The notes: generated from the letters alone by a model not told the origin. Positions 12,173 to 37,367 are shown, counted from the stretch's first letter. The stretch is DNA of 62,482 bases from an uncultured Dehalococcoidaceae bacterium (GCA_964456395.1 CAYWAU010000001.1:1-62482), one strand, 5' to 3'. Numbers and translations: made by a program.

Positions 12173-12340
12173 AAAGACTCCTTAAATGTGCACCGTCAGC
12201 ATTTATGGCACACAGTGCTAATGAAACTTACAAATAATTTCGGTTGCTCTCAGTAATACTTTACCGCTTTCAAAGGCTTCCGTTCAAGCTGCTCAGGTAT
12301 CCATAAATTTCTGCCCCAAAAGTGGTGCCGGTGGTCTGAC

Positions 12341-12369
12341 TTGACAACAGGATTGCCAGTTTATAATAA
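12341..12369 (+). promoter_or_regulatory. candidate sigma70-type promoter for the Zn-ADH gene
   Basis: TTGACA at 12341, followed by TATAAT/TAATAA at about 12362-12369. Located ~50 nt upstream of the 12420 start. Confidence 0.35.
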
Positions 12370-12419
12370 TGACACCGTGTCCACCTGTAGCCAAGAATAA
12401 TTAATCACGAAGGTAAAAT

Positions 12420-13451
12420 ATGAAAGCATTGAGATGGTATGGCAGAAAAGACCTCCGCTATGAGGATGTGCCTGAACCTTCACCCGGTTCAGGGCAGTTA
12501 AAAATAAGGGTTAACCTGGCAGGCATCTGCGGTTCAGATTTGAAGGCATACGCCGACAAACTCAGTATGATTACCGCCGACAAAGTGCCGCTGACCATAG
12601 GGCATGAGTTTTCCGGGAGAGTGGCGGTGGTCGGTGAAGGGGTAGCTGACTTTAAAGTCGGAGACCGGGTCAGCGGAGTAGGCTACTGGTTCTGCGGCGA
12701 ATGTTTTTATTGTAAAAGAGGTTTATACAATCTTTGCTTGAAATCGGACTTTATGGGCATCAGCAAGGATGGCTGTATGGCTGAATATCTGATTGCCCCG
12801 AGTTATGCTTGCTACAAGCTCCCCGACTCGGTGTCTGACGAAGCCGGGGCTCTGGTAGAGCCTCTGGCAGTAGCCATTCACGCTCTTCGCCAGGGCAAGG
12901 TAAGCCCCGGGGATACAGTGGCTATTGTGGGCGATGGTGCCATTGGCCTTGGCACTCTGCTGGCAGCCAGGGTGTCCGGGGCATCTGAAATTTTTATGGT
13001 AGCCAAGCATAAGGGGAGAGGAAAAATCGCCTCGGCTATGGGAGCTACCGCGGTTATTTATCTCAGCGACGGAGACCCAGTCCAGCTGCTCCAGAATCTG
13101 ACCGGCGGCTTGGGCGCGGACGTAACTATTGAATGTGTCGGCCAGCCGGATACCCCCCGGTTAGCCGTGGAACTGGCGCGAAGAGGGGGCACCGCCGTAA
13201 TCGTGGGTGTCTTTGAAAAACCAAGCACCTTTGACTTCAGCAGCATGACGTTCAGCGAGAGAACCGCTGTGGGCAGCTCTATTTATGTGGACGAGGGCAG
13301 GACGGCTATCGCTCTTCTAGCTGACGGCAGAATTGACCCCGCCTCTTTAATTACGTCAAAAGTACCGCTTAAAGACGCGGTAAAAATGGGGTTTGAGGAA
13401 CTGATTAACAATAAGGAGAAAAATATTAAAATCCTGCTTCAAATTCCCTGA
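12420..13451 (+). CDS. zinc-dependent alcohol/polyol dehydrogenase (MDR family, butanediol/sorbitol-DH-like)
   Basis: GICGSDL and GHEFSG catalytic Zn ligands. Structural Zn loop CGECFYCKRGLYNLC. Rossmann segment VAIVGDGAIG. Confidence 0.85.
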   Translation: MKALRWYGRKDLRYEDVPEPSPGSGQLKIRVNLAGICGSDLKAYADKLSMITADKVPLTIGHEFSGRVAVVGEGVADFKVGDRVSGVGYWFCGECFYCKRGLYNLCLKSDFMGISKDGCMAEYLIAPSYACYKLPDSVSDEAGALVEPLAVAIHALRQGKVSPGDTVAIVGDGAIGLGTLLAARVSGASEIFMVAKHKGRGKIASAMGATAVIYLSDGDPVQLLQNLTGGLGADVTIECVGQPDTPRLAVELARRGGTAVIVGVFEKPSTFDFSSMTFSERTAVGSSIYVDEGRTAIALLADGRIDPASLITSKVPLKDAVKMGFEELINNKEKNIKILLQIP

Positions 13452-13530
13452 GGATGGTTCCGCTGTAGCATACATTGCGGCAGCCAGAAAATTATGTGAA
13501 CCGCCGACTCTGGAGTTTTCACCGAAAATT

Positions 13531-13554
13531 AATGTATAATGAAATGTATAATGA
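13531..13554 (+). repeat. perfect 12-nt tandem duplication AATGTATAATGA x2 (two TATAAT boxes) upstream of Fe-ADH 1
   Basis: Read directly: aatgtataatga at 13531-13542 and again at 13543-13554. A third TATAAT lies at 13579-13584. Confidence 0.6.
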
Positions 13555-13594
13555 GAAGAGACTGTTTACCTGACAACATATAATTCCGCTTCCC

Positions 13595-13615
13595 GGGCAA
13601 CCGGCAAGGTTGCCC
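13595..13615 (+). promoter_or_regulatory. 8-bp stem hairpin in the 5' leader of Fe-ADH 1
   Basis: GGGCAACC-ggcaa-GGTTGCCC, located 40 nt upstream of the 13656 start. Confidence 0.3.
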
Positions 13616-13655
13616 GTAAAATACAACATTTATCTATCATAGAAGGAGAAAAGCC

Positions 13656-14867
13656 ATGATAAATAAAGAGATGTTTGAGTTTCCCATAACCTATACCAAT
13701 GTTATCCCCAGGATAGCCCTGGGATGGGGAGCCCATGAGACGGTTGCCGATGAATGCAAAGCCGCCAAAATTAAAAAGGCGTTGATTGTGACCTCAGGTT
13801 TGAAAGGAACCGGCATCGTCGACGAAATCAAAGGAATTCTGGAGCACAATGGCGTGCCGACAGAAATCTACGACAAGATCACTTCCAACCCTAAAGACTA
13901 TCAGGTGATGGAAGCTTATAAGGTCTTGAAGGACGGTGAATGCGACGGGGTGGTTTCGGTTGGCGGCGGCAGTTCCCACGATTGCGGCAAAGGCGTTCGT
14001 GTGGTGGCGGCCAACGGCGGAAAGGACATCCTGAACTTCTCCGCGTTTATAGACCCGCCCTGGATGGAAGAGGTTAAAAAATATAATCCGTGTACTATAC
14101 CGCAAATCACGGTTAATACCACATCCGGCACAGGGGCAGAGGTTTCGTCCATGGCAACCATTACGAGTGTGAAGGGCAGGGCAAAGCTATTGATTATTGC
14201 GCCAAATATTGTTGCCGACGTAGCCATTATCGACCCGCTATTAATACGGTTACAGCCTAAAAATATTGCTGCCTGGACAGGCTTCGATGCCATGACACAT
14301 GGATTCGAGGCATTTGTAACCAAGGTACAGGGCCCCTACGCCTATGGAATGCTGCTACGGGCGATTCAGCTCATTACAGAAAATCTCAGAGACTTTACTT
14401 ACAACCGGATGAACAATATCGCCTGTGAAAGAATGTGCTGGGCGGCGACAATGGGTGGCATCGCCATCGGCTTCGGCGCCGGTGCCGGCATTGTTCACGG
14501 ATTAGGACATCAACTCGGGGCATTAACTGACTGCCACCATGGTCTGGCCAATGGTGTTCTCACAATTGCGGGAGAGAGATATAATCAACCTGCCTGTGTT
14601 GAGAAACTCGCCGTCATGACCAAAGCGATGGGAGTTGATACCAGCAATATGACTGAATCGCAGGCCGCCGAAAGGTGGTTTGATGAAATGGAAAACCTGC
14701 TGAAGGACTTGGAAATCACCCCCGGCCAGTTGAACAAGCAGTTCGGGCTTCAGGAAAAGGACTTGGAACATATTGTCAAAATATACTCCAATGACTTCTG
14801 CAGCCAGGGAAATCCGCGAGAATTCAACGCCGAGGAAGCTCTCAACGTACTAAAGAGTATACTCTAA
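13656..14867 (+). CDS. iron-containing (type III) alcohol dehydrogenase, Mno/Mdo (nicotinoprotein methanol dehydrogenase)-like
   Basis: 403 aa. SNPKDYQVMEA, GGGSSHDCGKG, TTSGTGAE, HGLGHQLG, HHGLANG, and a GNPRE tail. The overall pattern resembles actinobacterial NDMA-dependent methanol dehydrogenases. Confidence 0.8.
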   Translation: MINKEMFEFPITYTNVIPRIALGWGAHETVADECKAAKIKKALIVTSGLKGTGIVDEIKGILEHNGVPTEIYDKITSNPKDYQVMEAYKVLKDGECDGVVSVGGGSSHDCGKGVRVVAANGGKDILNFSAFIDPPWMEEVKKYNPCTIPQITVNTTSGTGAEVSSMATITSVKGRAKLLIIAPNIVADVAIIDPLLIRLQPKNIAAWTGFDAMTHGFEAFVTKVQGPYAYGMLLRAIQLITENLRDFTYNRMNNIACERMCWAATMGGIAIGFGAGAGIVHGLGHQLGALTDCHHGLANGVLTIAGERYNQPACVEKLAVMTKAMGVDTSNMTESQAAERWFDEMENLLKDLEITPGQLNKQFGLQEKDLEHIVKIYSNDFCSQGNPREFNAEEALNVLKSIL

Positions 14868-15098
14868 AGGCTTGAGGAAGCTGAAAAGCTAAACAGAGAT
14901 AAGGGCAGACCCACCTGTAATGTGAGTGGCGATAACTTCTGCGTTACACTCCTACGAGGCTTACCTACCCGTGATATGAATCACAGTGCACACAAAGTCG
15001 GCTGTCACGGCAATAGAGACAGAGCTTAACGGAGGCAACGCCGGGGTCTGGCTTCAATTTGCTTTATAATAGCTCCACTGCTAGAATGCACAGGGGGT

Positions 15099-15206
15099 GG
15101 GGAAAGCCGGTTCCCTTCATGAAACGCGATACGGGAAAACCTATGCCAAGAATCATAGCAGAAGGAGGCGTATCCAGATAAATTAAAAGGGGAAAGGCCA
15201 GTTCCC
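15099..15206 (+). repeat. two copies of a GGGGAAAG-N-TTCCC hairpin motif 90 nt apart in the ADH1-ADH2 spacer
   Basis: ggggaaagccggttccc at 15099-15115 and ggggaaaggccagttccc at 15189-15206. Each can fold as a GGGAA/TTCCC stem. Confidence 0.35.
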
Positions 15207-15266
15207 GATTAAGCAGCTATGTGGACAATAAAAATCACAATATGTAGATGAAAAGGAGGAAAGCCA

Positions 15267-16487
15267 TTGATAAACGAAAATATACATCAATTTCCTATCA
15301 TTTACGCAGGTAACTGGGGCCTGGGCAGGATTGCCACCGGATGGGGTGCCCATAAGACCGTCGCCGACGAATGCAAGCAGCTCGGTATGAAGAAGGCGCT
15401 TATTGTGACCACCGGCCTGAAAGGAACCGGTATCGTCGATGAAATCAACCAGATTATATCAACCCAGGGTGTGGCGACAGAAATCTTTAGCGGGGTAACC
15501 TCCAACCCCAAAGACCATGAAGTTATGGCAGGCTATAAGGTCTTCAAGGAAGCTCAGTGCGACGGTGTGGTTTCGGTCGGCGGTGGCAGCTCACACGATT
15601 GCGGTAAAGCAATTCGCGCTGTTGCTTCCAACGACGGAACAGATGTTTCAAACTTCCAGCTGGGGATAGACCTGCCCTGGACGGAACAGATGAAAAAATA
15701 TAAAGCATGTACCATACCGCAGGTTTCGGTAAATACCACGTCCGGTACTGGTGCCGAGAACACGGGTGGTGCCGCTATCAACCAGTCCAATATCAGGGCC
15801 AAGCGAATAGCTATAGTACCGGGGACCGCACCCAGTATAGCAATTAATGACCCCCTGCTAATCCGGTGCCAGCCGGCACACATCGCCGCCCAGACCGGAT
15901 TTGACGGTTTCTGCCATGCCTTCGAGTCATATATAGCTCGCGTGCAACCGAAGCACAGTACCGTCCTAGCCGCCGGCGCCATCAAACTGATAGCCGAAAA
16001 TCTCAGGGAGTTTGCTTTCAACCGGATGAACCATGTAGCCTGTGAAAATGTCATCTGGGCATCGTCAATGTCGGGAGCCATAGGCCTCAGTCTTGGCGGA
16101 GGTGTCGGCGTGATACACGGTTTTGGACATGGACTCTCGGCACTGTATGGCGTTCACCATGGCCTTGCCAGCGCCGTCGTTACCATCCCGGGAGAGAGAT
16201 ATAATCAATCCGAGTGCCCTGATAAATTCGCCGAAATGGCCCAGGCTATGGGTGTTGATACCAGAAATATGACCAAGATGCAGGCCTCCGATGCGTGGTT
16301 CACCGAAGTTGAAAGACTGCTTGACGATTTGAATATCCAGACCGGGAACCTGAAGCGGTTCGGTCTCAAGAAAGAGGATATCCCGCATATTGTCAGGGTA
16401 CAGCATTCGCTCGATTTGACCGTAGTGGGCAACCCCAAGGACTACAATTATGACGAGTTAGTTGCCCTGTTTGAGACTCAGCTCTAA
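15267..16487 (+). CDS. iron-containing (type III) alcohol dehydrogenase, Mno/Mdo-like paralog
   Basis: 406 aa with TTG start after AAAGGAGGAAAGCC, the same RBS context as ADH1. Same motif set: SNPKDHEVMAG, GGGSSHDCGKA, TTSGTGAE, HGFGHGLS, HHGLASA, GNPKD. Confidence 0.8.
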   Translation: MINENIHQFPIIYAGNWGLGRIATGWGAHKTVADECKQLGMKKALIVTTGLKGTGIVDEINQIISTQGVATEIFSGVTSNPKDHEVMAGYKVFKEAQCDGVVSVGGGSSHDCGKAIRAVASNDGTDVSNFQLGIDLPWTEQMKKYKACTIPQVSVNTTSGTGAENTGGAAINQSNIRAKRIAIVPGTAPSIAINDPLLIRCQPAHIAAQTGFDGFCHAFESYIARVQPKHSTVLAAGAIKLIAENLREFAFNRMNHVACENVIWASSMSGAIGLSLGGGVGVIHGFGHGLSALYGVHHGLASAVVTIPGERYNQSECPDKFAEMAQAMGVDTRNMTKMQASDAWFTEVERLLDDLNIQTGNLKRFGLKKEDIPHIVRVQHSLDLTVVGNPKDYNYDELVALFETQL

Positions 16488-16633
16488 AGACCCCAAGAAC
16501 GGCGGTTGGGAAAATGCAGTGAGATAACTGCATTGATAGCCAGCGGGTGGCAGGGAGTCCCCTGGTAATTGTACAATAATAATAGGACTTGGTACCTACA
16601 GGATAAATCATAGCGGACGGAAGGCAGGTTAAG

Positions 16634-16765
16634 ATGGGAAAAGAACAGAAATCAGCGGTAGCAACGGCGAAAAATGAGGTCAAAACCACCCAGGAAGAAC
16701 CCGAGGTTTTAGAGGAAATCGTCGTTGAAGAGCTGAGCATAGACGGCGTTTGCGGGGTATACTAA
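16634..16765 (+). CDS. mftA: mycofactocin-type precursor peptide MftA (43 aa, absent from the ORF track)
   Basis: ATG at 16634, TAA at 16763-16765. Translates to MGKEQKSAVATAKNEVKTTQEEPEVLEEIVVEELSIDGVCGVY. The C-terminal IDGxCGVY signature sits directly upstream of MftB/MftC-like genes. Confidence 0.85.
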   Translation: MGKEQKSAVATAKNEVKTTQEEPEVLEEIVVEELSIDGVCGVY

Positions 16766-16767
16766 AT

Positions 16768-17034
16768 ATGGCGTGCCGCCTGGCAAATAATATTCAGGTA
16801 AGAAAGGAAAGCTGGGGTCTGCTGTTCTATTTGCAGGACCCGCACCGGGTCTGCTTTGTCAGAAGTGGCGACTGGCTTTATCCCCGGTATTTCGACGGAA
16901 CCTGGACATTTGACAGTCTGGCCGGCGACATCGCCCGGCGTACCGGAACCCCCGCTGAGATTATTGAGCGTTCTGTCCAAAAGCTATCCAAGCACTTGAT
17001 GGATAATGGGATAATTATCAATGAACCATGCTGA
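16768..17034 (+). CDS. mftB: PqqD-like peptide chaperone (RRE), MftB
   Basis: 88 aa from ATG 16768; the track start at 16750 is a TTG inside mftA. VRKESWGLLFY...PRYF... is a PqqD/MftB-like pattern. Overlaps mftC by 14 nt. Confidence 0.75.
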   Translation: MACRLANNIQVRKESWGLLFYLQDPHRVCFVRSGDWLYPRYFDGTWTFDSLAGDIARRTGTPAEIIERSVQKLSKHLMDNGIIINEPC

Positions 17035-18046
17035 CTGGCCGTTATCCGCCCCGGTAACTATAACCTGGGAAATTACACACCAATGTAACCTCAGTTGTAT
17101 CCATTGTCTTTCCAGCAGCAATGTAGAAACGCCCGGTGAACTGGACCTGGAAGAGTGCCTGTCAATTGTTGACCAGCTGGCGGCTCTTAAAGTATTTGAA
17201 ATCAACTTTGGCGGGGGGGAGCCATTACTCAAGAGCTATCTCATCCCTCTGTTGCGTTACATTCACCAAAAGGGGATGGTGACCTGCATCAGTACCAATG
17301 GTACCGTGTTCAATGATGAGGCGGTGGCTTACTTTACGGGCAATCCCCTGGTGAATATCCAGGTAAGTCTGGATGGCGCCACCCCCGAGGTCAACGACAG
17401 GATACGCGGTCAAGGAACATTCCCCCGGATTATCAAGGGGATTGAGCTTCTGGCCGGGAGGGATATACCCCTCTCTATCAATACCGTTGTTACCTCCCTT
17501 AACTTTAAGCAGCTGGGACAGCTCAAAGAGATGGCCGGTTCCTTCGGCGCCCGGCTCCGCGTGTCGCGGTTTCGCCCGTCGGGTCGTGCCAGGGATAACT
17601 GGGAACTGTTGAGGCTGGGTCCATCGCAATTGCAGGAATTATCCGACTGGTTGAGCGATGACCAGAGTATTTTGACCGGCGACTCTTTCTTCTCTATATC
17701 AGGTGATGGCAGACGACAGCTCGGCCTGGACATGTGCGGAGCCTGCAAGATGACCTGTTGTATCGACCCCTGTGGCCTGGTTTTCCCCTGCGCCTTCATG
17801 CAGGAAAGGGATTTCTGTGCCGGCAGCTTAAAGGTGTCTTCCTTCCAGGAAATCTGGGATTCATCGGACGTCTGCCAGTATTTCCGGCAACTGGAACCGG
17901 AAGCCTGCCGGAAATGCCCTCGCTTCAATACATGCCGCGGCGGCTGTCCCGCCGTGGCTTACTTCGTCAGTAAAGACCTCAACAGCCCTGACCCTGAATG
18001 CTTGATTAATTGGAGCCGGGATATATCACCTCTATCACCAGCTTAA
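17021..18046 (+). CDS. mftC: radical SAM/SPASM peptide maturase, MftC
   Basis: CNLSCIHC (CxxxCxxC) radical SAM cluster and GGGEPLL. C-terminal SPASM Cys array (CGACKMTCCIDPCGLVFPC...CRKC...CRGGCPA). Confidence 0.85.
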   Translation: MNHADWPLSAPVTITWEITHQCNLSCIHCLSSSNVETPGELDLEECLSIVDQLAALKVFEINFGGGEPLLKSYLIPLLRYIHQKGMVTCISTNGTVFNDEAVAYFTGNPLVNIQVSLDGATPEVNDRIRGQGTFPRIIKGIELLAGRDIPLSINTVVTSLNFKQLGQLKEMAGSFGARLRVSRFRPSGRARDNWELLRLGPSQLQELSDWLSDDQSILTGDSFFSISGDGRRQLGLDMCGACKMTCCIDPCGLVFPCAFMQERDFCAGSLKVSSFQEIWDSSDVCQYFRQLEPEACRKCPRFNTCRGGCPAVAYFVSKDLNSPDPECLINWSRDISPLSPA

Positions 18047-18081
18047 GGTGAGTAATATTATATCTGACAGGGGACAGAGAT

Positions 18082-20037
18082 ATGTACGGGCAATTTAAAT
18101 ATCTATTCTCACCACTACAGATAGGCAAGACAATAGTGCCGAATCGCATTTCTTTTTCCTCTCATCTAACCAACTTCGCCGAGGATAATTTACCAAGCGA
18201 GCGGCATACCTACTACCTGGCCGAGCGTGCCAGGGGTGGCGCCGGTCTGATAATAACCGAGGAACAGTCCGTGCACCCTACCGACCACTCATACGAAAAA
18301 CTCATCGATGCCTTCAAACCGGAGGTTATTCCCGGCTACCGCAGGATATGTAAGGCCGTTCATGAGTACGAAACGAAGATTTTCGCCCAGTTAAACCACA
18401 ATGGCGCTCAGGGTGACGGGACTATTTCCAGATTGCCCCTATGGGCACCTTCCCCGGTACCTGACGTGATGTTCCGGGAAGTGCCCAAGGAGATGGAACT
18501 GGAAGACATCAGGGAAGTTATTGAATCTTTCGGCAAGTCGGCAGCTCACGTCCGGGAAGGAGGCTTTGACGGTATTGAGTTGCAGATTAGCCACAGCTCC
18601 CTGCTGAGGCAGTTCCTGTCCCCTCTATCAAACCTTCGCACCGATGATTACGGCGGCAGCCTGGAGAACCGGATGAGGTTGGCTCTGGAGGTAATCGCAG
18701 CCGTTCGGGCAACGGTTGGGCTTGACTTCACTCTGGGGATGCGCCTTTGTGCCGATGAGATGATTCCCGGCGGCCTGACCCTTGACGATACCAGGGAGAT
18801 GGCACGCCGCTTTGAAGCCACCGGAAAAATTGATTTTATTGACCTGAGTATAGGAACTTTCTATAATCTTTATCTTGTCGGCGGCACGATGCACACTCCC
18901 CTGGGATATACCATTCCGCTGTCCGCCGGCATCAAAGAGGTGGTCAATCTGCCTGTCTTTGCCACCGGCCGGATTAATGACCCCGTAATGGCGGAGAGAA
19001 TCCTGGCTGAAGGTCAGGCTGACATGATTGGTATGGTACGCGCCCAGATTTGCGACCCCGAGATGGCCAATAAAGCCAGGGATGGCAGACTTGAGGAGAT
19101 AAGATACTGTGTTGCCGACAACCAGGGCTGTTACGGACGGATAGCCATGAACAAGGATATCGGCTGTATGCAAAATCCGTCCATCGGACATGAAAAGGAG
19201 ATGGGCATCGGCTCCATTAAACCGGCATCGGTTAAGAAAAGAGTATTGATTGTCGGCGGCGGGCCAGCCGGCCTGCGGGCGGCTGAGGTAGCGGCTAAAC
19301 GCGGGCATAACGTAACACTTTATGAAAAGAATGAGAAGCTGGGAGGTCAGGTTAATATTGCCGCACTTGGAACCGGACGGGAAGAAATCAGTGCTATTAT
19401 TCGTAATGAGGAGAACCAGCTTAAGATACTGCCGGTGGAAATCATCCTTAACAAAGAGGTCTCACCCGAATTCGTCCTGGCACAGAAGCCTGACACGGTT
19501 ATTATTGCCACCGGCTCGGTGCCCAAGGAAAGCCCGGTGCCGGGTGCCGACGGCACCAACATTTTCAACGTCTGGCAGGTACTTTCCGGTGAGGCAGAGC
19601 TGGGGAAACGGGTTCTCTTTATTGATTATGACGGGCATCACCAGGCCACAGCCACAGCCGAATACCTTGCCGATAAGGGTAAAGAAGTCCACATGCTCAC
19701 CTCCTCTTTATTCGTCGGGCAAGACCTGGGGCCGGTGCAGGACCTGTATCTCACCCGGCAGCGCCTCCTGCAAAAGGGCGTTACCTCTACGCCGGACTTC
19801 GCCGTCATGGAGATAAAGGGACTGGAGGTAAACGGCTTCAACGTTTATTCCAACGAGTGGCATACCTTCAGCGGCTATGACTCCATAGTGCTCGCCATGG
19901 GCAACCGTGTGGAAGACGCTCTTTATAAAGCCCTGAAAGGTAGAGTGAAAGAGCTTTACCGGATTGGCGATTGTGTGGCACCTCGCAAGATAGATATGGC
20001 GATACTGGAAGGCGATAAAGTGGGCAGGATGATTTAA
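18082..20037 (+). CDS. OYE-like FMN / Fe-S / FAD-NAD(P) oxidoreductase (2,4-dienoyl-CoA reductase / enoate reductase family)
   Basis: 651 aa. OYE TIM-barrel N-terminal half. Fe-S motif region CVADNQGC-x11-C. Rossmann segment VLIVGGGPAGLRAAEVAAKRGHNVTLYEK. Confidence 0.8.
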   Translation: MYGQFKYLFSPLQIGKTIVPNRISFSSHLTNFAEDNLPSERHTYYLAERARGGAGLIITEEQSVHPTDHSYEKLIDAFKPEVIPGYRRICKAVHEYETKIFAQLNHNGAQGDGTISRLPLWAPSPVPDVMFREVPKEMELEDIREVIESFGKSAAHVREGGFDGIELQISHSSLLRQFLSPLSNLRTDDYGGSLENRMRLALEVIAAVRATVGLDFTLGMRLCADEMIPGGLTLDDTREMARRFEATGKIDFIDLSIGTFYNLYLVGGTMHTPLGYTIPLSAGIKEVVNLPVFATGRINDPVMAERILAEGQADMIGMVRAQICDPEMANKARDGRLEEIRYCVADNQGCYGRIAMNKDIGCMQNPSIGHEKEMGIGSIKPASVKKRVLIVGGGPAGLRAAEVAAKRGHNVTLYEKNEKLGGQVNIAALGTGREEISAIIRNEENQLKILPVEIILNKEVSPEFVLAQKPDTVIIATGSVPKESPVPGADGTNIFNVWQVLSGEAELGKRVLFIDYDGHHQATATAEYLADKGKEVHMLTSSLFVGQDLGPVQDLYLTRQRLLQKGVTSTPDFAVMEIKGLEVNGFNVYSNEWHTFSGYDSIVLAMGNRVEDALYKALKGRVKELYRIGDCVAPRKIDMAILEGDKVGRMI

Positions 20038-20053
20038 CGACCGGGGGAGAAAA

Positions 20054-21070
20054 ATGGCCAAACCAAGAGAAATCTGGGTGCTGCCGGAGATAAACAACAA
20101 CGAAGAGGAAATCGGCAAGCTGAGCCTGGGACTCCTCTCCGAAGCCAGCTATATTGCGGGAAAGGCTGGCGGCACCGTAACCGCCCTGGTGCTTGGCGGC
20201 CAGAGCCAGGACTATTCTGAAGTCCTCGGTCAATATGGAGTCGCCAAGGCGTATATATTTATAGACCCTGTTCTTGAATACTTCTCCGCGGAGGCTTACT
20301 CGGCGGCTCTGCTGCCCAGAATTCAGGAAGATAAACCCTGGCTTCTGCTTATGGGCAACACCACCATCGGCAGGGAGCTGGCTCCCCGGCTGGCGGCGTT
20401 TTTCGAGACAGGCATAATCTCAAACTGCGCTAAAATGGACATATCCCATCCGGAGAGTCCGATATTCTTTCGCCTGATTTACGGAGACCAGCTCTACCAG
20501 GAGGTAATCTTTCAGACCAGCCAGACAATGCTGGTAACCATGGACCCGAGAGTTTTAAACATAAACCCTGTTGCAAAAAGGAGCAAAGCAAAAACTCTGG
20601 TGATTGAGCCAAGACTGTCTCCGGAGGTAATAAGGGCAGAGCATCTGGAATTCCTGCCGGCCGATTTCAAAACCGTGGATGTTGCCGAAGCTGATACTAT
20701 TGTCTCCGCTGGTATGGGAGCCGCCACTGACGAACTGCTGCCTCTGGTTGAGGAACTGGCCGGTCTGATTGAAGGCACTATCGGCACCACCCGGCTGGTT
20801 GTTGACGGCGGGCAAATATCCCGGGAGCGGATGATTGGACAAACCGGTAAGGTGGTCAGCCCGGAGCTCTACCTGGCTCTGGGAATATCGGGGGCGACCC
20901 ACCACGTCGGCGGCATTCAGGACTCGGGAAAAATCATCTCAGTTAACCGCGACCCGCAGGCTCCAATCTTCAGGAATTCCGATGTAGGCATAGCGGCTGA
21001 TATTAAGGACGTATTGCCCAAACTAATCGAAAAAATCAAGCAGGCTAAAAGCAATGGCACAATACTTTGA
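20054..21070 (+). CDS. fixB: electron transfer flavoprotein alpha subunit (FixB/EtfA)
   Basis: 338 aa. C-terminal FAD-binding motif LYLALGISGATHHVGGIQDSGKIISVNRDPQAPIF. Confidence 0.85.
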   Translation: MAKPREIWVLPEINNNEEEIGKLSLGLLSEASYIAGKAGGTVTALVLGGQSQDYSEVLGQYGVAKAYIFIDPVLEYFSAEAYSAALLPRIQEDKPWLLLMGNTTIGRELAPRLAAFFETGIISNCAKMDISHPESPIFFRLIYGDQLYQEVIFQTSQTMLVTMDPRVLNINPVAKRSKAKTLVIEPRLSPEVIRAEHLEFLPADFKTVDVAEADTIVSAGMGAATDELLPLVEELAGLIEGTIGTTRLVVDGGQISRERMIGQTGKVVSPELYLALGISGATHHVGGIQDSGKIISVNRDPQAPIFRNSDVGIAADIKDVLPKLIEKIKQAKSNGTIL

Positions 21071-22352
21071 TGTTATCATAGTCGGAGCCGGACCAGCCGG
21101 CAGCATGGCAGCCCTTAAACTGGCTCGAGCCGGACTGAAGGTTGTTATGCTGGAACGGGGCCAACGCCCCGGCTCCAAGAACATGTTCGGCGGGCTGCTT
21201 CACAATACGCCGGCTCTGAATGAAATGCTGCCTGCTTTCTGGGAAAGGGCACCCCTGGAACGGCACGTGTTTCAAAAAGTTCTTGCCTTCATGACCCCGA
21301 CTTCTTCCGTTTCCATGACCTTTGAAACCGAAAAATTTGAACAGCCTCCCTACAACGGCTACACCGTATTCCGTCCCGTTTTTGACAACTGGCTGGCTGG
21401 CGAAGCCGTCAAAGAAGGGGCTTTATTACTCTGCGATTGTACGGCCGAGGATTTGATTCAAAAAGACAGACAGGTGGTCGGCGTCACCGTTAAAGGCAGG
21501 GACGGCGAACTGAGAAGCAGCATAGTCATCGCGGCTGACGGAGTCCTGTCTTTTATGGCTGAAAAAGCCGGCCTGAGGCAAGATTTCCGCGCCGCCGACA
21601 TGGGCCTGGGCATCAAGCTCCTCCTGGGCCTGCCCGAGGCAACCATAGACGAGCGGTTCCACCTGGCCCGGGATGAAGGGGCTGACATCAGCTTTGTAGG
21701 CACGACAAATGGACTGCGCGGCGGCAGCTTCCTCTATACCAACCGTGAAAGTATCTCCATCGGCATGGTAGTGCATCTCGACTCGCTGAGGGCATCGGGT
21801 AAAGCCCCCTATCAGGTTCTGGATGAATTACTGCTGCACCCCCATGTCAGAAAGCTGCTCAAGGGCGCCGAGCCGCTGGAATACTCGGCACACCTTATCC
21901 CGGAAGGCGGCATCAAGGCAATACCAAAGCTTTATACCGGCGGGATGCTGGTCGTCGGCGACGCCGCCGGTCTGTGTTATACCAACGGCATCAATCTGGA
22001 AGGAATCAACCTGGCCATGACTTCCGGAGCGCTGGCTGCCGAGACGGCTCTGCAGGCAATAGAAGCCGGAGACTACAGTGCCCGGATGCTGTCATTATAT
22101 AAAAAGAAGCTGGACGGCAGCTTCATCATGAAAGATATGAAAACGTTTAAAAACGCCGTCGGCATGATGCATATGGAGCGACTGTTTCAGGCTTATCCGG
22201 AAATTGCCGGCAATATACTGGAAAAGATATACAGAGTTGAAGGCGTCCCCAGGCCAAAACTCCTGCGCCTGGCACGAAAAGAAGCGCTGAAAAAAGTGAA
22301 ACTGACAGACCTGGTTTCAGACGGCATTAAAATAGGCAAGTCATTATTATGA
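21054..22352 (+). CDS. fixC: FAD-dependent ETF:quinone-type oxidoreductase FixC
   Basis: 432 aa. FDVIIVGAGPAGSMAALKLA dinucleotide fold and GDAAG motif. Sits between fixB and fixX. Confidence 0.8.
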   Translation: MAQYFDVIIVGAGPAGSMAALKLARAGLKVVMLERGQRPGSKNMFGGLLHNTPALNEMLPAFWERAPLERHVFQKVLAFMTPTSSVSMTFETEKFEQPPYNGYTVFRPVFDNWLAGEAVKEGALLLCDCTAEDLIQKDRQVVGVTVKGRDGELRSSIVIAADGVLSFMAEKAGLRQDFRAADMGLGIKLLLGLPEATIDERFHLARDEGADISFVGTTNGLRGGSFLYTNRESISIGMVVHLDSLRASGKAPYQVLDELLLHPHVRKLLKGAEPLEYSAHLIPEGGIKAIPKLYTGGMLVVGDAAGLCYTNGINLEGINLAMTSGALAAETALQAIEAGDYSARMLSLYKKKLDGSFIMKDMKTFKNAVGMMHMERLFQAYPEIAGNILEKIYRVEGVPRPKLLRLARKEALKKVKLTDLVSDGIKIGKSLL

Positions 22353-22624
22353 ATGTTGATAATTTACCGCAACTAACACAATTCCAGGTTGACGAACAGC
22401 CCCATATTGTCTTGAATAAGGAAATCTGTCAGTCCTGTGACCACCGTGCCTGTGTCCAGTCGTGTCCGGCTAACTGCTATACCTTCGATGAAGCCACCAG
22501 AATGATGAGCGTCGTCTATGAGACATGTCTGGAGTGCGGCACCTGTTACGTAATTTGTGACCAAGGAGCCATTGATTGGAGCTACCCCAGGGGTGGCTAC
22601 GGAGTATGCTTTCGCCTGACCTAG
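22349..22624 (+). CDS. fixX: ferredoxin-like protein FixX
   Basis: 91 aa. CQSCDHRACVQSCP and CLECGTCYVIC motifs. ATGA overlap with fixC. Confidence 0.8.
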   Translation: MNVDNLPQLTQFQVDEQPHIVLNKEICQSCDHRACVQSCPANCYTFDEATRMMSVVYETCLECGTCYVICDQGAIDWSYPRGGYGVCFRLT

Positions 22625-22655
22625 AACTGAAGCCCGGCATGACGTGGTAATAGCC

Positions 22656-23558
22656 ATGAAGATTATTGTCTGCTTGAAAGAGGTGGTTGATACTAATCTG
22701 AGCCTTGGTTTCGGCTTGAGCAACCGGGTGGTCTTCCAGGAAGGACTGCCGCTCAGGCTGAATCCGGATGACACCGAGGCACTGGCAAAGGCACTCAACC
22801 TCAAACAGTCAGATGATGAAGCCCAGGTTGAAATCACCCTCATCTCTATCGGCCCGGAAAGGGTGGAGGGCTACTTAAGAGACGGACTGGCTCTTGGAGC
22901 CAACAGAGCGGTGCGCATACGGCAGGACAGCCTCATGGAGCTATCTTCTCATCAAAAAGCCAGGCTACTGTCCAGAGCCGTTTCTCTATTTGGTGCCGAC
23001 CTCGTTTTAACCGGAGCCGGGAGTCTGGATACCGGCAATGGTCAGGTAGGCCCGCTGATGGCGGCCTGGCTTGACCTGCCCTGTATCGGCGAAGTGGTCG
23101 GATTTAAGCTAGCCGATGAAAAAAAGAGCATCACGCTAACCAGAGACATCGGCAGAGGCGCCCGGGAAAAGATACGGTGCTCTCTGCCGGCGGTCATAAC
23201 CGTGAAAGGAGAAGGAAAACTACACTATGCTTCTCTGGATAGGCTTGTGGAGAGTAAATATGGTGAGATAATTCGGCTTACTCTGGCTGACCTTGGTACA
23301 TCTGACGTTGAGTTGAAAAATGACCCCACCAGGATTACTGGTCTGGCTTACCCGAGGCCCAGGCCCAGGAAAACACCGGCGCCAGAAAGCTCGTTACCGG
23401 CGTTTTACAGAATCCTGAAGCTACTGGAGGGAGGCATCTCCCGGCGACAGGGGGAAATGCTCCAGGGCAGCAGCCAGGAGCTGGCTGACCAGCTCTTTGA
23501 GCTACTTATAGAAGAGGGCGTGATTGAGTCAGCCACAGAAAAGGGCTCCGGTAAATGA
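22656..23558 (+). CDS. fixA: electron transfer flavoprotein beta subunit (FixA/EtfB) with ~40-aa C-terminal extension
   Basis: MKIIVCLKEVVD is a typical EtfB N-terminus, and the ORF ends in a Pro/Arg-rich linker plus tail. GTG at 22644 is an alternative start. Confidence 0.8.
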   Translation: MKIIVCLKEVVDTNLSLGFGLSNRVVFQEGLPLRLNPDDTEALAKALNLKQSDDEAQVEITLISIGPERVEGYLRDGLALGANRAVRIRQDSLMELSSHQKARLLSRAVSLFGADLVLTGAGSLDTGNGQVGPLMAAWLDLPCIGEVVGFKLADEKKSITLTRDIGRGAREKIRCSLPAVITVKGEGKLHYASLDRLVESKYGEIIRLTLADLGTSDVELKNDPTRITGLAYPRPRPRKTPAPESSLPAFYRILKLLEGGISRRQGEMLQGSSQELADQLFELLIEEGVIESATEKGSGK

Positions 23559-23602
23559 CCCGGAGCCGAGCCAGCAATAAATTATGAGCGGATGACCCTT
23601 CT

Positions 23603-25051
23603 ATGGCAGGATTTGGCTTTTCATTAGCGGACAACACCTATTTAAGAGAAGACCCCGACGGTAATTTTCTGCTCTCCAATCTGCCCCTGAGAATACTCCG
23701 AATAAACAAACCTCTCTTCCGACTCCTCAAGCACCTCCAGGGGGGTGGCGAATTGCCCGAATTTGTCAGTCAGAACCCGGGGCTGGAGGAGGGGCCTTTG
23801 CTGAGGGTCCTGCTGTCTCTGGCATCCAGGGGATACCTGAAATTAGAGAGAATAGCCAAAATAGAAGACTACCCCATCGTCTCCATTGTCATTCCAGTCC
23901 GAGACCAGCCTGAAGATATCATTGAGTGCCTCCAATCGCTGAGAAATCTGGATTATCCGGGAGACCGGTTTGAAGTTATTGTGTTAGATGACGGTTCCCA
24001 GGCTGAAGTCTCTCAGGGTGTTACTACTCCCGATGTTATGGTCATCAGGCAAGACGAGTCACGGGGCGCCTCTGTCTGCCGAAACATCGGGGCTGAAAAG
24101 GCTCGCGGCAAAATCCTGGCCTTTCTGGACGCCGACTGTATTGCCCCTGAGAACTGGCTAAAGGAAACCATTCCCTTTTTCAAAACGGCGACGGTCGGGG
24201 CGGTAGGCGGTTATGTGGACGGCTATTACAAAGACAGCTATCTGGACCGGTACGAAGAGGTCTCTTCATCGCTGAACATGGGGAAGCGGCTCCTCCTGGA
24301 AGGCAATACGGAATCAAACTTTTATGTGCCTACGGCCAATATGCTGATTAACAGGGACGCCTTTATGGCTACCGGTGGTTTCAGGAGCGGTATGCACCTG
24401 GGTGAGGACGTGGATTATTGCTGGCGAATGAGAAACCTCGGCTACACCCTGCTCTACGTTCCTTTTGGCAGGGTTGCCCATAAGCACCGCAACCGCCTCG
24501 GTAAAATGCTGAAAAGACGGAGCGAATACGGGACATCGGAAGCCAGGCTCTACCTCATTCACCGGGATAAAAGGAAGACCTTTCTCATTTCTGTCTGTGC
24601 CGGATTATCTTTCCTGGCCCTGACCCTCTCTGTTTTGCTTTTAAATCCTTATCCCCTCTGCCTTATCCTGTTATTATTCGGGATTGACCTGCTCCGGAAA
24701 TCCGGCACGCTGAGGAAGTTCAAAATGCTGCTTCCTTTCCGACAAATAGCCTGCGCCACCCTGAGAAGCTATTTTTCCTCCTATTATTTCGCTCTGTTTC
24801 ACCTGGTAAGATATTACCTGTTCTTAATATTTGGGCTCGGCTTCTGGCTTCACTCCGTGTGGCTTTTTGGCGGCCTGGCGGTGCTCTTCACATCAATCGT
24901 AGATTATTCCGTAAAAAAGCCGAATCTGCCTTATCCGGCCTTCCTTTTCTTTTATGTCCTGGAACATCTGGCATACCAGATAGGGGTTCTCCGGGGGTGC
25001 CTAAAATTAAAATATTTCAGGTCGTATATCCTTTCCTTCAGGCGTGCCTGA
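23603..25051 (+). CDS. mftF: family 2 glycosyltransferase with membrane-spanning C-terminal region, MftF-like
   Basis: 482 aa. N-terminal PqqD-like segment (LLSNLPLRILRINKPLFRLL). GT-A core (VSIVIPVRDQ, VLDDGS, FLDADC). Hydrophobic C-terminal ~140 aa. Same transcription unit as mftABC. Confidence 0.7.
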   Translation: MAGFGFSLADNTYLREDPDGNFLLSNLPLRILRINKPLFRLLKHLQGGGELPEFVSQNPGLEEGPLLRVLLSLASRGYLKLERIAKIEDYPIVSIVIPVRDQPEDIIECLQSLRNLDYPGDRFEVIVLDDGSQAEVSQGVTTPDVMVIRQDESRGASVCRNIGAEKARGKILAFLDADCIAPENWLKETIPFFKTATVGAVGGYVDGYYKDSYLDRYEEVSSSLNMGKRLLLEGNTESNFYVPTANMLINRDAFMATGGFRSGMHLGEDVDYCWRMRNLGYTLLYVPFGRVAHKHRNRLGKMLKRRSEYGTSEARLYLIHRDKRKTFLISVCAGLSFLALTLSVLLLNPYPLCLILLLFGIDLLRKSGTLRKFKMLLPFRQIACATLRSYFSSYYFALFHLVRYYLFLIFGLGFWLHSVWLFGGLAVLFTSIVDYSVKKPNLPYPAFLFFYVLEHLAYQIGVLRGCLKLKYFRSYILSFRRA

Positions 25052-25089
25052 TTCCCGAAAAAAGACATTTTTTATGGCGATAATAAAGG

Positions 25090-26280
25090 ATGAAGATAAA
25101 TATTAAAGGTGATTATTATCGGGCGGCCGTCAGGTTGCTGGGCAACGCTCTCAGGTTCCGCTATTCAAAATTTACGGGAGCCCCTTTAAAGCCGGCGGTA
25201 GTCAGTCTGGCAGTGACAAATCGCTGTAACTCCCATTGTATCATGTGCAATATCTGGCAGAGAGCCAGGGAGCTACCCGGTATCAAGAGTCTGGAGATGC
25301 CCCAGAAAGAGATTCTGGACTTATTATCACGTCCCCTGTTTTCAGAGCTGGTTGAGCTGGACTTAACCGGCGGCGAGCCTCACCTGAGAGATGACCTGGT
25401 TGACATCGCGCTCAGCATAGCCAGTCTCAAAAAAAGCTCTCTGCCAAGACTGAGGAGCATCATCATTACCTCTAACGGCTTATTACCCCGACAGGTAATC
25501 TCAAACCATCAGAGAATTCTGGAAGGTTTAAAAGGCACAAATATAGACCTGGTCAGTGTTGCCTCAATGGATGGGATTGGGGAAACTCACGACTTTATCA
25601 GGGGAACCAGGGGTGCTTTTGAACTGGCTACCAAAACAATCAGCGGGCTTCTGGAACTCAGGAAGAAATACCCCGATTATTTCATCGGCATAAAAACCAC
25701 AATCCTGCCCCAGAACGTCAATAGTCTTGATGCTATTCTGGATTATGCTCTGGAAAAGAATATTTTTCATATCATTTCACCGGTCTTCTTCACCGAAGCG
25801 AGGTTCAGAAATACGGACAAAATAGATGAATTAACGCTGGGACCTGATGAATATAAAGAGGTCCTGAAATTTTTCAGTCGTGATGAATTAAAGACGAGCT
25901 ACTTCTACCCTTTGGCACGAAGCTTCCTGGCTACCGGGCGAAAGCAATGGGCGTGTACCGCCTTTCACAACTATCTGTTCATCGATTTTGACGGAACGGT
26001 ATATCCCTGCGAACTGATATCCGAGCCAATCGGTAACGTCAGAGAGCAGGACGTGGCGGACATCTGGAACGGTGCCGAGGCTCGTCACTGGCGGAAAAGA
26101 ATCGGGAAACTGGAATGTTGCCGTACCTGCAATGAGCCCGGCGCGATACGGTACAGCGCCTGCACCGAGGGATTCAGCTACCTTAAGTTTTTGGTGAAGC
26201 TCGGCAGGCAAAAATTCCGTAAGACCCTTTACGGAGAGGGTTTTTACAAATATTTTGGTGATTTACAGGCAAAGAAATGA
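25090..26280 (+). CDS. second radical SAM / SPASM-domain protein of unknown substrate
   Basis: 396 aa. CNSHCIMC (CxxxCxxC), LTGGEPHL, and C-terminal Cys-rich region (CTAF...YPCE...CCRTCNEPG...C). Starts 38 nt after mftF. Confidence 0.75.
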   Translation: MKINIKGDYYRAAVRLLGNALRFRYSKFTGAPLKPAVVSLAVTNRCNSHCIMCNIWQRARELPGIKSLEMPQKEILDLLSRPLFSELVELDLTGGEPHLRDDLVDIALSIASLKKSSLPRLRSIIITSNGLLPRQVISNHQRILEGLKGTNIDLVSVASMDGIGETHDFIRGTRGAFELATKTISGLLELRKKYPDYFIGIKTTILPQNVNSLDAILDYALEKNIFHIISPVFFTEARFRNTDKIDELTLGPDEYKEVLKFFSRDELKTSYFYPLARSFLATGRKQWACTAFHNYLFIDFDGTVYPCELISEPIGNVREQDVADIWNGAEARHWRKRIGKLECCRTCNEPGAIRYSACTEGFSYLKFLVKLGRQKFRKTLYGEGFYKYFGDLQAKK

Positions 26281-26294
26281 GGCGGGCGACCGCA

Positions 26295-27962
26295 TCAATC
26301 GCGCAGAACCGCCCCGCGGCTGGCTGAGGTTACCCTGTCCGCATAGCGCTTGAGGTAGCCGGTTTTTACCCTAGGCTCAAAGACGGGTAATTGTGCTAGG
26401 CGATTTTTTATCTCCTCATCGGTCAATTCCACTTCAAGTTTATGGTTGGGAATATCAATGCTTATCATGTCGCCGTCATGTATAATAGCTATCGGCCCGC
26501 CGCTGGCTGCCTCCGGTGATATGTGACCGATAGCCGGCCCGCGCGTCGCCCCGGAGAAACGACCGTCGGTAACAAGGGCGACCTCCCTGTCTTTGCCCAT
26601 GCCGCAGAGCAAGGCAGTTGTCCACAGCATTTCCACCATGCCGGGACTGCCCCTGGGTCCTTCGTAGCGAATCACGAGCACATCGCCACTCTTGAAATTC
26701 TGGTTCATTACTGCCTTGGTCGCTTCCGCTTCCGAATTGAAAACTCGTGCCGGACCCCGGTGGACAAGCATCTCAGGAGCGACGGCACCGCTTTTCACCA
26801 CAGCGCCATCGGGAGCCAGGTTGCCAGATAAAACGGTAATGCCGCCGGTGGCCGCATAGGGGTCAGCTAACGGACGGATTACCTTCCGGTCCATCACCCT
26901 AGCAGCTTCAAGGTTCTCTCCCAGCGACCTGCCGGTAACCGTCTTGACTTCAAGATTCAGCAAAGGCTCAAGCTCCTTCATCACGGCAGGTATGCCGCCG
27001 GCGAGGTCCAGATGCTGTAACCGGTATTCCGATGCCGGGCTGAACTTGGCAAGCAAAGGGGTCTGGCCGCTAATCTCGTTGATAAGCGAAAGAGGAAAAT
27101 CAATGCCGGCCTCGTGGGCTATCGCCGGCAGGTGCAATACCGTGTTGGTGCTGCCGCCCACCGCCATGGCGACCACAAAGGCGTTGTAAACGGATTCCCC
27201 GGTAACAATGTCGCGCGGACAGACATTCTCATTGACCAGCCCCACAATTCTTCTGCCGGCACCCTTAGCCAGATTATTTCTTCGTACATCCACCGCCGGG
27301 ATAGTGCCGTTGCCGGGTAGCGCCATGCCCAGGGCTTCCGTCAGGCAGTTCATGGTATTGGCGGTGAACATACCGGCACAGCTACCGCAGGTCGGACAGG
27401 CAGCGTGAGCCAGGTTTTCCAGGTCTTCTTCACTGATTTCGCCTCTTAATGCCGGCGCCATACTTTCCGCAACGGTAGCCAGGTCAATCAATCTGGACTC
27501 ACCGTTTTCGTAGACCCGCCCCGCCAGCATCGGCCCCCCACTGACAAAGATTGAGGGTATGTTTACCCTGACGGCGCCCATGAGCATACCGGGCACTATT
27601 TTGTCGCAGTTGGGTATAAGAACGAGACCATCCAGGGGATAAGCCCCGGCCAGGATTTCCACGGAATCAGCAATAAACTCCCGACTGGGCAGGTTATACC
27701 TCATGCCCGGGAGTCCCTCATTGATGCACTCTCCCAGCGCTATGGTACCCAGCTCAAACGGGACACCGCCGGCACTGCGGACACCCGCTTTCACCGAGCT
27801 GGCAATACCATCCAGATGGGCATGTCCGGGGAATATCTCGCTCTTACTATTGATAATCCCGATAAACGGCTTCTTTAAATCTTCCTCACTGCAACCCACC
27901 GCATAAAGTGCGGCGCGCTGTGGCGCATGCTCAATCCCCTTTTTGGTAGCGTCACTTCTCAT
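26295..27962 (-). CDS. ilvD: dihydroxy-acid dehydratase (IlvD/Edd family)
   Basis: 555 aa. [41 protein letters not shown]. Confidence 0.85.
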
Positions 27963-37343: not shown

Positions 37344-37367
37344 TTACTACTTCAGGAGAATATTACT

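Follow-up and report, generated by a model that had tools for sequence, protein, structure and literature searches.

A five-gene OYE2-ETF-FixCX module in the mycofactocin operon of an uncultured Dehalococcoidaceae bacterium as a candidate substitute for MftG and MftD

Examination of a 62,482-nucleotide stretch of DNA from an uncultured Dehalococcoidaceae bacterium (GCA_964456395.1, CAYWAU010000001.1:1-62482; the whole of this stretch is referred to as the window) revealed a mycofactocin (mft) operon that also contains genes for a FadH/OYE family oxidoreductase (OYE2), the large and small subunits of an electron transfer flavoprotein (ETF; EtfL and EtfS) and, between these two subunits, the FixC and FixX proteins of a split ETF:quinone oxidoreductase. 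This OYE2-EtfL-FixC-FixX-EtfS module accompanies mft genes in several distant lineages and, in the clusters examined, represents a second mycofactocin-cluster architecture, one without MftD and MftG. We propose, with a probability of about 0.5, that its products may form a linear OYE2-ETF-FixCX-quinone chain that acts on mycofactocin and replaces MftG and probably MftD.

MftC scans of genome and metagenome loci were pooled and, after removal of duplicates, yielded 96 distinct MftC loci (designated by L and a number where they have to be told apart), the closest of which by MftC belong to uncultured Dehalococcoidales/Dehalococcoidia and show MftC identity of 67-83% among them. The complete five-gene module was found in 37 of the 96 loci, and in another 24 the contig ended inside the module with the gene order as expected up to that point; 33 contigs were too short to judge, and the module was absent from two loci (L111 and L014). 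Distant lineages (L101, L113, L114, and L117) retain the module with small-subunit identity of 33-43%.

The same genes were observed next to mft genes well beyond these bacteria. In Candidatus Formimonas warabiya, the order is zinc-dependent alcohol dehydrogenase (Zn-ADH), OYE, OYE2, EtfL, FixC, FixX, EtfS, mftB, mftC, and mftF; a Dehalobacterium metagenome-assembled genome (L036) and a metagenomic contig (L035) show this order plus a small open reading frame (ORF) at the mftA position just before the first OYE gene, which has a weak PF23709 (MftA) match in L035 and no family match in L036. The module of Firmicutes therefore lies inside the biosynthetic genes, between the mftA position and mftB. 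Streptomyces plasmids carry, by RefSeq annotation, mftA-B-C, OYE_1, OYE_2, "mycofactocin-associated ETF alpha", a FixC-like FAD oxidoreductase, a 4Fe-4S protein, "mycofactocin-associated ETF beta", and mftF and/or mftE, and in Haloterrigena turkmenica and Halolamina the five module genes are located beside mftA-B2-C-F. The pair considered in Haloterrigena is that at 87-91 kb; a second plasmid ETF pair (51.5 kb) has no mft genes within 15 kb and was set aside. Across these groups, OYE2, FixC, FixX, and MftC are 33-51% identical to the window proteins, and the ETF subunits 25-31% or lower. Synteny over four phyla (Chloroflexota, Firmicutes, Actinomycetota, and Halobacteria) that persists despite rearrangement is hard to explain otherwise, implying that ETF/FixCX is functionally tied to mycofactocin. 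A preliminary description of this DNA had supposed such a tie and suggested a synteny survey, and the recurring linkage to mft genes bears it out; its placement of the route in an anaerobe is too narrow as a general trait, given that the module is also present in Streptomyces and aerobic haloarchaea.

The distribution of the module is complementary to that of MftD and MftG, which were looked for up to 10-14 kb from the clusters and over entire plasmids. Twelve PLSDB plasmids contain mftC. OYE2 is adjacent to mftC on eight of them, none of which encodes a close MftD on the replicon, and the four of these eight clusters that were inspected have the full module and lack both MftD and MftG. The remaining four plasmids (from Thermomicrobium, Mycolicibacterium, Tsukamurella, and Streptomyces NBC_00080) have no module, and all of them encode MftD, two also MftG; when the whole plasmid collection was searched for MftD, close homologues (at least 60% identity) occurred on exactly these four replicons. 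We could not detect any match to MftD, MftE, or MftG of Streptomyces, Tsukamurella, Thermomicrobium, and Haloterrigena in the 62-kb window by tblastn (E <= 1e-3), nor any FMN_dh, creatininase, or GMC domain among the approximately 45 larger window ORFs scanned, and tblastn with the three proteins gave no match in any Dehalococcoidia or Firmicute locus. It has been reported that about 25% of genomes with mftC lack MftG, with the substitute being an open question (MftG paper, 2025, PMC11778925), and that MftD and MftE are not universal (Haft 2011, PMC3023750).

The gene that adjoins the ETF genes in every module-bearing cluster is that of OYE2, which was overlooked in the preliminary description and which is most likely the direct ETF partner. 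It has the FMN domain, Fe-S motif, and FAD domain of TIGR03997, and its best solved relatives are 2-naphthoyl-CoA reductase (6QKG) and FadH (1PS9), followed by trimethylamine dehydrogenase (TMADH) and histamine dehydrogenase. Its second Rossmann fold reads FIDYDGHHQA where FadH has GCGGIG, so that the NAD(P)H-type GxGxxG is absent, and in this respect it resembles histamine dehydrogenase and TMADH, both of which are without a functional NAD(P)H site at that position. The electron acceptor of TMADH is ETF, with which it forms complex 1O94. OYE-family enzymes are also known to interconvert alpha-dicarbonyl and alpha-hydroxy-carbonyl groups (PMC11494505), which is the chemistry of the premycofactocin/premycofactocinol couple.

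Two further observations concern OYE2. The [4Fe-4S] motif at 19108-19170 (residues 343-363) is C-V-A-D-N-Q-G-C...C, with Asp at the second Cys of the reference motif of FadH, TMADH, and 2-naphthoyl-CoA reductase, CxxCNQxC(x11)C. This Asp is kept in approximately 55 Dehalococcoidia-type loci and in L110, L113, and L117, and Cys is retained in L101 and L103, Firmicutes, Streptomyces, and haloarchaea; the substitution suggests an Asp-ligated or 3Fe cluster. In addition, locus L034 (1-10885) contains OYE, OYE, a GH15 glycosidase, EtfL, Zn-ADH, FixC, FixX, and EtfS, with mftB, mftC, and mftF absent in the 10 kb downstream.

By sequence comparison, FixC and FixX are closely related to EtfC and EtfX of Thermotoga maritima, which reduce menaquinone. 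FixC matches 7KOE_C with 277 bits over residues 4-405, begins with the FAD GxGxxG motif DVIIVGAGPAG, and has the quinone-binding domain PF21162. FixX matches 7KOE_D with 79 bits and contains two cluster motifs aligned with it (C27/30/35/39 and C60/63/66/70) as well as a ninth Cys, C43. Both proteins thus belong to the FixCX/EtfCX (split ETF:quinone oxidoreductase) group, and since FixCX is the split form of ETF:quinone oxidoreductase, the second-best match of FixC being 2GMH, their presence alone does not imply bifurcation.

The ETF subunits have diverged far more than FixC and FixX. Both have the ETF domain, the large one has the C-terminal FAD-binding domain, and the top PDB and fold matches of both are all ETF subunits. 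The best solved relatives of the large subunit are Clostridioides difficile EtfA (5OL2_A, 182 bits) and 6FAH_A, with 135 bits for T. maritima; the small subunit reaches only 80 bits with its best solved relative. Signatures of bifurcating (group 2) ETFs were taken from PMC8958531 and PMC10734219, and assignment was made by motif, sequence, and fold comparison. The zipper motif is DGDTAQ in bifurcating ETFs, with T in 100% and G in 95% of 216 sequences, and DDDxNQ in canonical ones (PMC8958531); the window small subunit has DTGNGQ, relatives have DNASGQ and DVASGQ, and the motif has degenerated even further in the proteins of Firmicutes, Streptomyces, and haloarchaea. Thr94 and Thr97 (ADT94xAT97), which hydrogen-bond the second FAD (PMC8958531), correspond to S102 and K105 of the 304-aa ORF in an alignment to 5OL2_B, onto which the Rhodopseudomonas palustris numbering was mapped by inference. 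Among the motifs RxGV and GxxSPTxV of the small subunit and RPxFGG of the large one (PMC10734219), RxGV is replaced by QEGL, SPTxV is partly preserved as DPTRI, and RPxFGG has become FRLIYGD, in which the Arg is kept and the remainder has diverged.

These motif states make it improbable that the complex is a true FixABCX in which electrons from NADH or mycofactocinol are bifurcated to quinone and ferredoxin, a reading that follows the preliminary description, where a check of the motif for the second FAD had been suggested. Bifurcation would accord with the similarity of FixCX to the bifurcating T. maritima complex, with the scores of the large subunit (182-135 bits against bifurcating ETFs and 120-84 bits against canonical ones), with the retained Arg next to the bifurcating flavin, and with the aldehyde:ferredoxin oxidoreductase genes near several mft clusters. 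However, 447 of 449 non-bifurcating (canonical) ETFs have that Arg as well (PMC8958531), and the small subunit is equally distant from both classes in sequence and fold comparison: a fold search with its AlphaFold model scores 4KPU_B, 6FAH_B, 1O94, and 1EFV_B alike, without separating bifurcating from canonical structures. Energetics point the same way. With literature potentials of about -255 mV for mycofactocin, -74 mV for menaquinone, and -450 mV for ferredoxin, the ferredoxin/menaquinone mean of -262 mV leaves mycofactocinol at -255 mV without driving force for bifurcation, whereas its transfer to menaquinone is downhill by approximately 180 mV. Taken at the level of sequence, ETF/FixCX appears not to be a bifurcating Fix complex. 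The aldehyde:ferredoxin oxidoreductase genes next to mft clusters (L035 138-1991, L113 10143-11855, and L014 8994-10919) would fit an alcohol to aldehyde to acid route with two different electron carriers.

A Pro/Arg-rich segment of the small subunit had been described as an extension of about 40 aa at the C-terminus, not typical of EtfB. Alignments show instead that about 28 aa (PRPRPxxxxxxxSSLPAFxRIxxLLxGG) are inserted into the C-terminal arm and that the protein still ends in the usual helix ELADQLFELLIEEGVI; in the model of the subunit produced by AlphaFold (pLDDT 81), the inserted segment consists of an extended linker and a short helix (residues 249-257). The database start of the protein (P0001) is ATG 22656, giving 300 aa, and the alternative GTG 22644 gives the 304-aa ORF. 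We could not find a significant PDB match for the C-terminal 71 aa. Nor is the insertion peculiar to this protein: among 1.8 billion representative proteins searched, a long-form family of 285-305 aa with end-to-end alignment comprises well over 100 clusters at 50% identity, and PRPRPK...ER...SGG is its consensus. Such long-form small subunits constitute a large family that, by its motifs, fits neither the canonical nor the bifurcating signature, and no description of it was found in the literature searched. Two members lie away from mft genes. In L037 (2555-6622, no mft genes), an OYE/FadH-like gene precedes the genes of a long-form small subunit, which has the arm insertion, and of a ferredoxin-domain large subunit, so that the OYE-ETF pairing exists independently of mft genes; in L126 (1229-3302, a short contig), a long-form small subunit stands beside a CCG Fe-S protein outside any mft cluster. 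L037 had suggested that the insertion might serve specifically for docking to OYE partners, an idea that the neighbour in L126 weakens.

From gene identities, synteny, the exclusion of MftD and MftG in the clusters examined, and motif states, which were observed directly, we infer a substrate, a direction of flow, an order of carriers, and a quinone acceptor. The upstream nicotinoprotein dehydrogenases would oxidise alcohols, and mycofactocin would accept the electrons to become mycofactocinol. OYE2 may bind the mycofactocin ring at its FMN and oxidise the C3 centre of mycofactocinol, its Fe-S cluster and FAD would deliver the electrons to the ETF flavin, and from there they could reach menaquinone by way of the FixX clusters and then the FixC FAD. 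The module would in this way re-oxidise mycofactocinol, the job of MftG. Since MftD is also missing, its job, formation of the keto-amide redox centre by oxidative deamination, probably falls to OYE2 as well and would proceed independently of O2.

Several lines of evidence favour such a linear chain. The NAD(P)H glycine motif is missing from OYE2, as it is from histamine dehydrogenase and the ETF-reducing TMADH, and FixC and FixX are near a T. maritima EtfCX that reduces menaquinone. The synteny (37 full and 24 consistent loci against 2 exceptions among 96), the retention of the module through rearrangement in Firmicutes, Streptomyces, Haloterrigena, and Halolamina, and the mutual exclusion with MftD and MftG argue in the same direction, as do the quarter of mftC genomes that have no MftG (PMC11778925). 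A more far-reaching version, which we regard as tentative and somewhat doubtful, is that the module may be a single O2-independent, quinone-linked replacement for both MftD and MftG and may define a second, ancient type of mycofactocin system in Chloroflexota, Firmicutes, Actinomycetota, and Halobacteria, with its ETF being a new non-bifurcating long-form class that has a decayed second-nucleotide site.

A number of observations weigh against the proposed chain. In L111, a mycofactocin-coupled short-chain dehydrogenase/reductase, mftB, mftC, mftF, LarE, and LarB are present without the module; L014 lacks it too, but there the break after mftC also removes mftF, which suggests a rearrangement or a chimeric scaffold. 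OYE2 is overall nearer to enoate/aryl-CoA reductases (6QKG, 1PS9) than to amine dehydrogenases, and the covalent-FMN Cys of TMADH is presumably absent from it, according to a reading of the sequences by eye. Two acyl-CoA dehydrogenases in the window (36177-38516), approximately 13 kb away, are possible ordinary ETF clients. Menaquinone production by these Dehalococcoidia is an assumption of the scheme, the search for MftD and MftG is bounded by the 10-14 kb range and the plasmids, and a literature search found no paper joining "mycofactocin" with "etf" or "electron transfer flavoprotein".

The role of electron outlet for the cofactor put forward in the preliminary description is thus upheld in part: it is thermodynamically easy (-255 to -74 mV), but a biosynthetic role, i.e., the last oxidation making premycofactocin, is equally likely because all the module clusters examined lack MftD as well as MftG. 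That the module serves biosynthesis only, with OYE2 acting as an O2-independent MftD substitute on AHDP (3-amino-5-[(4-hydroxyphenyl)methyl]-4,4-dimethyl-2-pyrrolidinone), ETF-FixCX disposing of the two electrons, and recycling taking place elsewhere, appears unlikely to us, even though module and MftD exclude each other throughout the 12 plasmid clusters, no module-bearing locus has MftD, and the OYE2 relatives TMADH (an ETF donor, 1O94) and histamine dehydrogenase oxidise C-N bonds. A four-protein quinone-linked chain would be lavish for a low-flux step, the same clusters have no MftG, so cofactor recycling must come from something, and OYE2, lacking by eye the TMADH flavinylation Cys, is nearer to FadH and naphthoyl-CoA reductase. 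The latter kinship raises instead the possibility of a catabolic enoate/aryl-CoA-type reductase fed by ETF-FixCX in reverse flow from quinol or ferredoxin, or of an ETF serving ordinary acyl-CoA dehydrogenases, with mycofactocin connected through a shared pathway only. The nearest structures of OYE2 (2-naphthoyl-CoA reductase and 2,4-dienoyl-CoA reductase), the OYE/FadH-like gene and ETF pair of L037 without mft genes, and a window full of CoA-transferases, acyl-CoA dehydrogenases, and hydratases would agree with this. We nevertheless think it quite unlikely, considering that the module accompanies mftABCF in two domains of life regardless of catabolic neighbours, that the Firmicute module is inserted within biosynthetic genes, and that it replaces MftD/MftG instead of adding to them.

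It is also conceivable, though very unlikely, that ETF takes hydride directly from mycofactocinol at a remodelled second nucleotide site in place of NADH, with OYE2 otherwise employed. The bifurcating-FAD/NADH site is exactly where mycofactocin-linked small subunits depart from both classes; however, the changes differ by phylum without convergence, which looks more like decay of the site than a new specificity, and the strictly co-conserved OYE2 offers a simpler entry point. In diazotrophs, FixABCX supplies reduced ferredoxin/flavodoxin to nitrogenase, and two radical SAM genes are present in the operon, so that a Fix-like complex might make a low-potential reductant that activates MftC and the second radical SAM protein. 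This appears extremely improbable, as MftC also occurs in classical mft clusters that have no module of this kind, the motifs for bifurcation are missing, and the module co-varies with loss of MftD and not with radical SAM content.

Comparison with known systems places the linear OYE2-ETF-FixCX chain in context. The NCBIfam mycofactocin-associated ETF families (NF038209 and TIGR04503) and OYE families 1 and 2 (TIGR03996/TIGR03997) occur on Streptomyces plasmids in the order mftA-B-C, OYE, EtfL, FixC-like, 4Fe-4S, EtfS, and mftF, as in the window, and direct comparison with plasmids L118 and L125 revealed the mft_etfA/B context in the window as well, i.e., ETF genes in an mft cluster, after OYE, with FixC-like and 4Fe-4S genes between them. 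The plasmid small subunits are likewise of the long form with the arm insertion, and these clusters too lack MftD and MftG. On the other hand, the window ETFs score below the NCBIfam cutoffs (157 vs 240 and 81 vs 200) and share no more than 25-30% identity with the Streptomyces ones, and the window has one OYE where Streptomyces has two, no MftE, an extra radical SAM gene, and Asp for one OYE2 Cys ligand. The NCBIfam families themselves are names only.

The bifurcating Fix/EtfABCX complexes (7KOE; diazotroph FixABCX) have the same four subunit types, with scores of 277 bits for FixC and 79 bits for FixX, the quinone-binding domain, and the two cluster motifs. In the window, however, the order is B-C-X-A after an OYE gene, the small subunit lacks DGDTAQ, RxGV, and T97, the ETF subunits (80 and 135 bits) are far more diverged than FixCX, and the donor is probably a dehydrogenase instead of NADH; the window has neither the fixABCX order of nitrogen fixers nor, in the ORF survey, any nif genes. 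As in the TMADH-ETF system (1O94), ETF is accompanied by an FMN/[4Fe-4S] flavoprotein that has the FadH/TMADH fold but no functional NAD(P)H site, and FixC plus FixX would be the split equivalent of the last component in the mitochondrial dehydrogenase-ETF-ETF:quinone oxidoreductase chain; yet OYE2 is nearer to FadH/naphthoyl-CoA reductase, and its electron transfer to ETF is proposed here from gene adjacency only. With MftG (a GMC flavoprotein) and MftD (of the FMN alpha-hydroxy-acid-oxidase family), the module would share its proposed jobs, their distribution being complementary, but it has no sequence relationship to them, is a multi-subunit Fe-S chain that should not need O2, and is found in strict anaerobes. 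A reductase gene directly before ETF genes, as in the window, is also seen in the caffeyl-CoA reductase-Etf (CarCDE) type and in L037; the latter differs from the window in keeping all bifurcation motifs, in its ferredoxin-domain large subunit, and in having no FixCX and no mft genes.

The genes of the operon form 13 tightly successive plus-strand genes (12420-26280) running from alcohol dehydrogenases through the mft genes to a second radical SAM gene (Table 1). The four ETF/Fix genes, their coordinates, and the order EtfL-FixC-FixX-EtfS agree with the preliminary description, with E-values all far beyond chance; it had put them between mftC and mftF, and they do lie within the mft operon with mftF following, but OYE2 separates mftC from the ETF genes. 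The three alcohol dehydrogenases upstream of mftA likewise match its expectation of nicotinoprotein-type enzymes. From mftA to the last gene, the intergenic gaps are -17 to +44 nt, which is compatible with one transcript, as had been deduced from the spacing. A promoter-like site was observed at 12341-12370, ahead of the first gene. A promoter/terminator scan of 12000-27000 gave site counts no higher than in shuffled sequence and is thus uninformative on transcription units.

Table 1. Genes of the mycofactocin operon, with positions in the window and supporting matches
Product	Coordinates	Strand	Evidence
Zn-dependent alcohol dehydrogenase, first gene of the operon	12420..13451	+	PF08240 + PF00107
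Fe-type alcohol dehydrogenase near N,N-dimethyl-4-nitrosoaniline (NDMA)-dependent methanol dehydrogenase (nicotinoprotein type)	13656..14867	+	PF00465; TIGR04266 265 bits, below cutoff
Second Fe-type alcohol dehydrogenase with TSNPKDHEV motif	15267..16487	+	profile + translation
mftA precursor peptide, C-terminus ...SIDGVCGVY	16634..16765	+	translation; tblastn conservation in related loci
mftB chaperone	16768..17034	+	TIGR03967 22.9 bits, below cutoff 33; position mftA-mftB-mftC kept
mftC radical SAM/SPASM maturase	17021..18046	+	TIGR03962 347.8 bits, cutoff 265
OYE2, 651 aa, "mycofactocin system FadH/OYE family oxidoreductase 2"	18082..20037	+	TIGR03997 962 bits, cutoff 793
ETF large (alpha, FixB-type) subunit	20054..21070	+	PF01012 + PF00766; NF038209 mft_etfA 157.4 bits, below cutoff 240
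FixC/EtfC-type FAD quinone reductase subunit	21054..22352	+	PRK10015 350 bits; PF21162 ETFQO_UQ-bd
FixX/EtfX ferredoxin-like subunit	22349..22624	+	two [4Fe-4S] motifs; PRK15449 55.8 bits, below cutoff
ETF small (beta, FixA-type) subunit, long form	22656..23558	+	PF01012; TIGR04503 mft_etfB 80.7 bits, below cutoff 200
mftF glycosyltransferase	23603..25051	+	TIGR03965 335 bits, cutoff 280
Second radical SAM/SPASM protein, last gene of the operon	25090..26280	+	generic radical SAM/SPASM matches only

The identity of the mycofactocin cluster is established by mftA with its ...GVY core together with mftB, mftC, and mftF; mftB scores below the cutoff but stands in the conserved position, and its homologues in L035 and L036 bear PF26520 (MftB_chaperone). 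The Zn-ADH gene upstream of mftA is kept in most related loci and the first Fe-type alcohol dehydrogenase gene in related loci as well, and the TSNPKDHEV of the second Fe-type enzyme matches the TSNPKDYE plume tied to mycofactocin by Haft 2011 (PMC3023750). The second radical SAM/SPASM gene, directly after mftF, is kept in many Dehalococcoidia loci and in L113 and L114, without a specific family match; its product may provide an extra maturation step in clusters without MftD/MftE. No near-identical DNA to the window was found in the plasmid collection.

Other genes in the neighbourhood deserve mention. Divergent from the operon start, a GlcD-like FAD dehydrogenase and a CCG/4Fe-4S protein of glycolate/lactate-oxidase type are encoded on the minus strand (9502-12172). 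Just downstream of the operon lies a homologue of the LarA-like nickel-pincer racemase (27998-29245, minus strand), and in L111 LarE and LarB directly follow mftF (12417-14242), so nickel-pincer cofactor genes and mft genes may form a recurrent neighbourhood. The region 32588-57700 is unusually rich in acyl-CoA metabolism, with six family-III CoA-transferases, two MmgE/PrpD proteins, an enoyl-CoA hydratase, and a thiolase-like protein, and also contains a tripartite ATP-independent periplasmic (TRAP) transporter with two binding proteins.

The association of mycofactocin with ETF is already known by name, through the NCBIfam and RefSeq designation "mycofactocin-associated ETF alpha/beta"; given this naming of the Streptomyces ETFs, it is not a new observation. 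OYE and ETF genes are unmentioned in Haft 2011 (PMC3023750). The wide spread of the module, its occurrence in Dehalococcoidia and Firmicutes, and, for the clusters examined, its strict complementarity with MftD/MftG seem not to have been reported before. These results provide a physiological context for the uncharacterised "mycofactocin OYE" and "mycofactocin-associated ETF" families, and the finding that module and MftD never occur together in the clusters examined bears on how anaerobes make the redox centre without an MftD-type FMN oxidase. For the re-oxidation of mycofactocin beyond the mycobacterial lineage, a step expressly acknowledged as open, the module is a concrete and widespread candidate, and its presence in culturable Streptomyces strains and in Haloterrigena/Halolamina makes its role directly testable.

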